DNA from: a virus
Lineage: Duplodnaviria; Heunggongvirae; Uroviricota; Caudoviricetes
IMG/VR virus record: IMGVR_UViG_2663762839_000013
Span: 1-4,041 of that record
Reading direction: 5' to 3' (one strand)
DNA length: 4,041 nucleotides
In this document: positions 1-557 of the stretch, one piece after another
Position numbering within the stretch: the stretch's first letter is position 1
Layout: every line of letters begins with the position of its first letter
Notes under the pieces: generated by a model
The model's input: the letters and a program-made list of their open reading frames with translations, nothing else
Databases searched by the model: none
What the model was told of the DNA's origin: nothing
Position numbers and translations under genes: made by a program

Positions 1-216
1 CACTTACCGGGGCCAATGTTATAGGGACAAAATGACGCGATACCCGCTTTCTGGGGTTCGGTCAGCGGCACTTTAATATTGCGCTCCACCCATGCCAGCG
101 CCTTATCACGCTCAATGGCGTTGACCTGGTCGCATTTTTCCTTCGACAACTTCATGCCCGGGACGACAGGTTTACTATCCACCAGGATGGCACCGCGGCA
201 GATGGTCCAGATACCC
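1..216 (-). pseudogene. Phage endolysin R fragment (GH24 T4-lysozyme-like, SAR-endolysin family), 5'-truncated; 3' end runs off the window
   Basis: Minus-strand translation reads ...GIWTICRGAILVDSKPVVPGMKLSKEKCDQVNAIERDKALAWVERNIKVPLTEPQKAGIASFCPYNIGPGKC, matching from memory the core of E. coli prophage lysozymes of the Rrr type. In the same frame, stops lie at 258-260 (TGA) and 288-290 (TAA), so the N-terminal ~45 aa (signal-anchor and catalytic Glu region) cannot be encoded here. Similarity begins abruptly near 215. Confidence 0.65.
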
Positions 217-240
217 CGTCTCCCGCAATCCGGAAGCTCA

Positions 241-279
241 CAACAACAAGAGGGGCATCAGCTCACACCGACAGCCCCT
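241..279 (-). terminator. Possible weak intrinsic terminator after the 89-aa ORF
   Basis: On the minus strand, AGGGGC (256..251) pairs with GCCCCT (279..274) around a 17-nt loop, followed by a U-rich tract CUUGUUGUUG (revcomp of 241-250). Long loop, so not canonical. Confidence 0.25.
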
Positions 280-287
280 TCGCATGG

Positions 288-557
288 TTACATCATCATT
301 TCGCCGTCAGGCTGAGGCTCACTGCTACCATCAGGCTGAGACCCGACGCCATCTGAAACAGCACTGTCATCCGCAATGCCTTCCGGCTCCGGAACAGTCG
401 GTGCGCCCAGCAGTTCATCCAGAATGGCATCCACTTCTGCATCAAGACGCGCCTCAAGGTTCTGCCGAAGTTGCTGTTTCAGTGCGCTTCTGACTTCTTC
501 AGAGCGCAGGACTTCCTTCACTGCTTCAGCAGTGACCAGCGATTTTATTTCTGACAT
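288..557 (-). CDS. Hypothetical acidic protein, 89 aa (helical N-terminus, D/E/P/S-rich C-terminal tail)
   Basis: ORF track 288..731; I prefer the internal ATG at 555-557 (MSEIKSLVTAEAVKEVLRSEE...). The longer N-terminal extension overlaps the upstream 60-aa ORF and reads like non-coding translation. A purine-rich stretch GAGAAAATACC precedes the ATG. Stop is TAA at 288-290. Confidence 0.5.
   Translation of the reverse strand: MSEIKSLVTAEAVKEVLRSEEVRSALKQQLRQNLEARLDAEVDAILDELLGAPTVPEPEGIADDSAVSDGVGSQPDGSSEPQPDGEMMM

Follow-up and report, generated by a model that had tools for sequence, protein, structure and literature searches.

The lysis cassette of phage 21 comprises the pinholin S21, the SAR endolysin R21 and Rz/Rz1. 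The SAR domain, and the motif E-X8-D-X5-T found in SAR endolysins, are described in PMC9239132. In annotated Stx phages and E. coli prophages, the genes around a lysis cassette stand in the order esterase, DUF1378, DUF826, S holin, (YdfR), R lysozyme, Rz. E. coli K-12 carries two comparable modules, essD-rrrD-rzpD in DLP12 and essQ-ydfR-rrrQ in Qin, and the DLP12 module is among the matters discussed in PMC7918800.

The stretch of DNA considered here, the window, is 4,041 nucleotides long. Its minus strand is the late region of a lambdoid E. coli prophage, with lysis genes of the phage 21/Qin type. Read along that strand, the region from 3388 down to 1 contains a partial tRNA-Arg(UCU), STnc100, the nanS-p esterase, DUF1378, DUF826 and a fragment of the lysozyme R. 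An earlier note, made from the sequence alone, gave the order in lambdoid late regions as nanS-p, small ORFs, S, R, Rz, and the intact relatives bear this out. The features of the prophage part are these:

3326 to 3388, minus strand: tRNA-Arg(UCU), the 3' 63 of 77 nt, its 5' end lost at the first chimeric joint
3060 to 3250, minus strand: match to the STnc100 sRNA family, lying between nanS-p and the tRNA genes (Rfam RF02076, 139.2 bits; gathering score 47)
913 to 2838, minus strand: nanS-p-type SASA carbohydrate esterase, 641 aa, intact (Pfam DUF1737, SASA and DUF6645)
595 to 777, minus strand: DUF1378 gene, 60 aa, intact, with one N-terminal hydrophobic segment (Pfam PF07125, 128.1 bits)
288 to 557, minus strand: DUF826 gene, 89 aa, intact (Pfam PF05696, 126.9 bits)
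217 to 287, minus strand: what is kept of the DUF826-S spacer, with the Shine-Dalgarno sequence of S, GGGAGA, in it (from the alignment and junction sequences)
211 to 216, minus strand: deletion joint, the single copy kept of GGGTAT, which reads ATACCC on the plus strand (from the overlap of BLAST pieces)
1 to 216, minus strand: fragment of lysozyme R, codons 47-117 of 177, running off the window (100% identity over 216 bp to R of the relatives L006-L010)

R is visible only as far as codon 117, where the source sequence itself ends, at window base 1. At the other end, the alignment between the window and one relative, L007 (CP170296.1, 1,969,723-1,991,648), stops at window 3388, which is position 9450 of L007. 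ARAGORN finds a complete tRNA-Arg(UCU) in L007 (9436-9512) and calls no tRNA in the window. The relatives carry three tRNA genes at this site, tRNA-Met(CAU), tRNA-Arg(UCG) and tRNA-Arg(UCU). The STnc100 match is full-length and has a terminator-like hairpin (3090-3071) at its end.

The relatives were found through the esterase. In the public collection, 80 blocks contain exactly this 641-aa protein, and the ten places listed for it are all NCBI assemblies. Those relatives among the places listed that extend far enough carry DUF826, a holin of 71 aa (PF04971), YdfR/DUF1327 of 114 aa, and an R of 177 aa (PF00959). The window from 211 to 3388 is 99.8% identical to them, with five substitutions and one indel, and the window from 1 to 216 is 100% identical to their R gene. 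Over 3.2 kb there are only six differences from the closest relatives, at positions 280, 2857, 2952, 3259, 3268 and 3294, and none lies within the annotated genes DUF826, DUF1378 or nanS-p. The window therefore comes from a slightly different lineage and is no copy of the relatives' assemblies.

What remains of the lysis genes is easily stated. When the relatives' proteins are compared with the window by tblastn, only residues 47-117 of R are found (window 215..3, 100% identity), while holin, YdfR, residues 1-46 of R, and Rz are found nowhere in the window. The relatives' holin scores 112.5 bits against PF04971; against the window it gives only noise, the best value being E = 0.054 in the piece of an acyl-AMP ligase gene described below. 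The earlier note had reported a missing holin and thought that neither small ORF upstream of R looked like one. Both observations hold: Pfam identifies the two ORFs as DUF1378 (595-777) and DUF826 (288-557) and nothing else, and tblastn across the whole window shows no S holin in an alternative position. DUF1378, with its one hydrophobic segment, might be considered a replacement holin, yet it occurs together with S in intact phages, so it is no substitute.

The lysozyme fares no better. The note's reading of a 5'-truncated R beginning at GIWTICRG, with in-frame stops at 258-260 and 288-290, is reproduced by the reverse translation of 1-290, which runs (stop)PCEGAVGVS(stop)CPSCCCELPDCGRRGIWTICRGAILVDSKPVVPGMKLSKEK... 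The stop at 288-290 is the stop codon of DUF826, which is in the same frame as the R fragment. The fragment begins at Gly47, with no ATG, GTG or TTG ahead of GIWT, and hence R has no start codon. It matches PF00959 at 37.9 bits (cutoff 22.3), but only over profile positions 15-81 of 125. When the R of an intact relative is aligned to the phage 21 lysozyme (3HDE), E35, D44 and T50 fall at the positions of the R21 triad. Of these, Glu35 and Asp44 are gone from the window and T50 alone is kept, since the window's R begins at G47. Residues 1-46 of R (MNTKIKYGLSAAVLALIAAGAPAPEIL...), which include the SAR domain, occur in none of the window's six frames. The possibility was raised that an intact lysozyme start with a SAR domain might emerge in another frame once a sequencing indel is corrected. 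It does not emerge: the other two reverse frames of 1-292 contain neither a SAR domain nor a lysozyme N-terminus, and the 756 bp are missing from the sequence.

Lacking a holin, and with an R that has lost its start codon, its SAR domain, its Glu and its Asp, the cassette as written is dead, unable to depolarise the membrane or to cut murein. Rare initiation at the ATC that replaces the start codon of S would yield a cytoplasmic, catalytically dead stub. Given that the features of a functional endolysin (triad, SAR domain, start codon) are missing and no holin accompanies the fragment, the window's lysis genes are best described as a pseudogene remnant. What this means for the physiology of the strain I can only infer, as S and R could come from other prophages resident in it.

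Comparison with the relatives shows how the remnant is built. Relative to them, the window lacks exactly 756 bp of the stretch DUF826-S-ydfR-R, and the same block is missing when the window is aligned to the prophages of O104:H4 and VT2-Sakai. The BLAST pieces to the left and right of the gap overlap by exactly six bases, GGGTAT (window 216..211). L007 has two copies of this sequence, at 12623-12628 and 13379-13384, and it is the intervening 756 bp that are absent from the window. The last two bases of the first copy are the AT of the holin's ATG start codon in L007, and the second copy covers codons 46-48 of R in the same genome. The deletion thus takes out S, ydfR and codons 1-46 of R. The sequence at the joint is GGGAGACGGGGT-ATC-TGG: the start codon of S has become ATC, and the holin's Shine-Dalgarno sequence (GGGAGA) now stands in frame with codon 48 of R (window 211-232, minus strand). 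Collinearity and strand are preserved across the two flanks, the 756-bp gap at 211-216 being the sole structural difference. Six or more bases of microhomology are longer than expected by chance (P = 0.0019, from 200,000 simulated random deletions in L007). The anatomy of this deletion, as it stands in the window's sequence, is near certain. The earlier note was right that there is a breakpoint, which it put at about 217-240; the joint lies a little further along, at 211-216.

The note went on to suggest that 1-216 might be a foreign fragment joined at about 217-240; its source would be another phage or element, recombined onto this prophage. Such a thing is conceivable in general, lambdoid phages being mosaic in their R and S regions, and the window's identity to Stx phages does shift from segment to segment. 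However, the very relatives that match the upstream 3.2 kb at 99.8% have an R gene that matches 1-216 at 100%. Once the 756 bp are counted, the distance and the strand of 1-216 are as expected, and so no second donor is needed. The supposed foreign fragment is the same prophage family's own R, 756 bp further along, and there is next to no chance that the foreign origin is correct.

I propose, with confidence about evenly divided, that the deletion is real in the organism and arose by slippage or microhomology-mediated deletion between the 6-bp repeats. That short direct repeats give rise to deletions in E. coli is textbook genetics. RecA-independent deletion of this sort is reportedly the subject of work by Albertini et al. 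(1982) and by the Lovett laboratory, with classic hotspots in lacI. By this proposal, RecA-independent replication slippage, or some other microhomology-mediated deletion, would have acted between the GGGTAT copies in bacterial DNA, and selection would have favoured the loss of the holin-endolysin pair.

Why should such a loss be favoured? The carriers of the identical nanS-p are remnants, without most or all of their morphogenesis genes. In three of them, L006 (at 16.7-21.9 kb), L008 and L010, a truncated Nu1 is followed directly by yfdC-mlaA-yfdF-fadL, the fusion falling within K-12 intS at about 2,466,622, at the argW/CPS-53 locus. In L007 there remain only terminase and gpW, and then an integrase gene. 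In a prophage that makes no particle, an inducible holin-endolysin pair does nothing except kill the host, and loss would therefore be selected. Deletion of harmful genes from grounded prophages is well described (PMC6379469). With most or all morphogenesis genes gone from the relatives, decay would be expected to reach the lysis genes next. By the same token, the element was probably cryptic already before the deletion, inasmuch as its close relatives with an identical nanS-p are already remnants. The suggestion in the earlier note of a lysis-defective, cryptic prophage stands to the extent that the cassette as written is dead; the crypticity probably predates the deletion, and the deletion may exist in the contig only.

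That last reservation arises from the other end of the contig. Beyond 3388 the prophage sequence breaks off within the tRNA gene, and four unlinked pieces of core genes come next:

3389 to 3526, plus strand: piece of a chromosomal fatty acyl-AMP ligase gene that adjoins yghO, 138 bp (100% identity to NZ_CP024147.1; same orientation in K-12)
3524 to 3658, plus strand: piece of ptrA, antisense to the gene, 135 bp (100% identity to E. coli genomes; K-12 position 2,957,594-2,957,728, same orientation)
3653 to 3917, plus strand: piece of crr, 265 bp (99.2% identity; K-12 position 2,535,903-2,536,167, same orientation)
3914 to 4041, minus strand: piece of ppk, 128 bp, in inverted orientation compared with the other pieces and cut off by the window end (98.4% identity; K-12 position about 2,623,898-2,624,025)

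The four joints have true overlaps of 0, 3, 1 and 1 bp, and the net lengths of the pieces are about 137, 132 and 256 nt and at least 128 nt. On the K-12 map, 87-594 kb separate the loci that the joints link. None of the complete E. coli genomes covers 80% or more of 3300-4041 in one place, and the order acyl-AMP ligase-ptrA-crr-ppk was not found there. A patchwork of four unlinked pieces of core genes, 128-265 bp in length, makes this a chimeric contig. The patchwork is older than the cutting of the window: an 82-aa ORF across the joint between tRNA and ligase (window 3167-3415, minus strand) is present exactly in UniParc as UPI0005EBC221, the one product of ten candidate chimeric products whose exact look-up in the protein collection succeeded. 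This means that the chimeric contig was part of a deposited, annotated assembly. Hi-C or other ligation at restriction sites does not account for the tail, there being no GATC or other common site at its joints.

Since this end of the contig holds joins that are almost certainly absent from any normal E. coli chromosome, the deletion at the other end deserves less trust, and it may not exist in the organism at all. Nor is there a sign that normal sequence continues past the deletion joint, because only 216 bp are available there, a length that a chimeric piece could have (128-265 bp). It is possible, if somewhat doubtful, that the deletion is absent from the organism and that the contig as a whole is an artefact of library or assembly. 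On this account, a unique block of about 3.2 kb (211-3388), flanked by repeats common to lambdoid prophages, the tRNA-Arg on one side and the S-R region on the other, gained its two ends from chimeric reads, from template jumps of a polymerase in vitro, or from a scaffolder or gap closer that fuses ends sharing tiny overlaps. The account makes good sense of the tail, where four unlinked pieces are fused with overlaps of 0-3 bp in an order that no complete E. coli genome has, and where the lengths of the pieces resemble those of single reads; at just above 127, they might also be minimal edges of a k = 127 graph. It makes sense too of where the trouble starts, both anomalies beginning a few dozen bases within sequence shared among lambdoid prophages. 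The draft contigs of the relatives stop in the same region, and the identical nanS-p lies on contigs of 2-5 kb in 56 index blocks.

The artefact account has a harder time with the deletion joint. That joint is a different kind of event from those of the tail, as it is local (756 bp), collinear, on one strand and marked by six identical bases, in contrast to near-chance overlaps between distant loci. It would be very rare for a random mis-join of the tail's type to fall only 756 bp off, with the strand unchanged and six bases identical (for the microhomology by itself, P is about 0.002). The process that made the tail would almost never yield the deletion joint; slippage would, and so would an in-vitro polymerase jump. 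Template jumping in vitro, as is established for PCR chimeras, also yields local, same-strand deletions at microhomology. Also against the artefact account, six shared bases are too few for a De Bruijn assembler to make a join, and a rare jumped molecule should lose out in the consensus, unless coverage of the true path had been removed as a repeat. A scaffolder fusing contig ends that share 6 bp or less is at most a candidate cause: the joint with 0 bp goes unexplained, and GGGTAT would be needed at both contig ends by chance.

A 40-mer centred on the joint can match only where the joint is present, and it has no match in 5,426 complete E. coli genomes or in 50,697 phage records. A 30-mer across it is absent from the GTDB representative genomes, the JGI metagenomes and IMG/VR. 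The best matches of 1-560 in the 5,426 complete genomes all come in two pieces, with the holin between them. That the joint is in none of the collections searched is as an artefact would have it. The flanks have scarcely diverged from the intact relatives, which indicates a deletion that is either very recent or not biological.

There is a third way to view the contig, in which deletion and tail are both real, the products of one replication-based event of multiple template switching, of the type called MMBIR or chromoanasynthesis. A broken fork would have copied short stretches from nearby chromosomal templates and skipped 756 bp along the way. The pattern has the right look, five joints in 4 kb, with 0-6 bp of microhomology and pieces of 132-256 bp, one of them inverted. 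The geography is also suggestive. The donor loci lie at 2.536, 2.624, 2.958 and 3.130 Mb in K-12, and the related remnants have their argW/CPS-53 site at 2.466 Mb; a span of 0.66 Mb, 14% of the chromosome, takes in all five (5 x f^4 = 0.002, calculated post hoc, and 0.008 for the four pieces alone). Such clustering goes unexplained if the tail is a random artefact. Lateral transduction does not produce it either: the direction of packaging, from cos to Nu1, points away from the donor loci. The clustering statistic, however, was devised after the fact, and it takes the window's prophage to be at argW as in the relatives. Three of the four tail joints have overlaps of 0-1 bp, which blunt joining fits equally well. 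The pattern is in none of the complete E. coli genomes, and artefact is a far commoner cause of such patchwork. I know of no comparable insertion of multiple pieces in a natural E. coli genome. A single event of template switching seems to me very improbable, and it is only if all five joints were made by such an event in vivo, an unlikely case, that the contig would be of wider interest.

The value of the contig depends on which account is right. If the deletion is real, then this is another defective prophage shedding genes that kill its host, with the holin removed and the endolysin decapitated by a short-repeat deletion and the nanS-p esterase kept, which is of use for annotation (a pseudogene in a lysis-defective remnant) and unsurprising. 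If it is an artefact, then the deposited contig is unfit for inferring the gene content of the prophage.

Set beside the systems already known, nothing here is new in kind. The relatives have ordinary cassettes of the phage 21/Qin type, a pinholin and a SAR endolysin. Their 71-aa holin of PF04971, with its dual start MYQM (class II; sequence MYQMEK...), and their 177-aa lysozyme of PF00959, with a Gly/Ala-rich N-terminal segment and E35-X8-D44-X5-T50, are like the cassette of phage 21 (S21, R21 and Rz/Rz1), and the flanking order from nanS-p to Rz is like that of Stx phages (S-R of VT2-Sakai) and of Qin-type remnants (holin, YdfR, lysozyme). The window departs from phage 21 in having no holin, no ydfR and no codons 1-46 of R, which leaves it a dead remnant. 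The relatives resemble DLP12 and Qin of K-12 in being defective, with morphogenesis genes lost and the late region kept; unlike those K-12 modules, where holin and lysozyme genes are intact, the window has its own deleted or truncated.

The joints may be compared in the same way. Like the deletions long known between short repeats, this one has a 6-bp direct repeat at both ends, with one copy kept, about 0.75 kb lost and the flanks unchanged. The scar of slippage in vivo is the same as that of template jumping in vitro, and the origin in vivo is a proposed one. The tail is like that of chimeric contigs, in which short unlinked pieces abut with overlaps of 0-3 bp at one contig end, and in this the deletion joint, local and collinear with 6 bp of identity, is unlike it.
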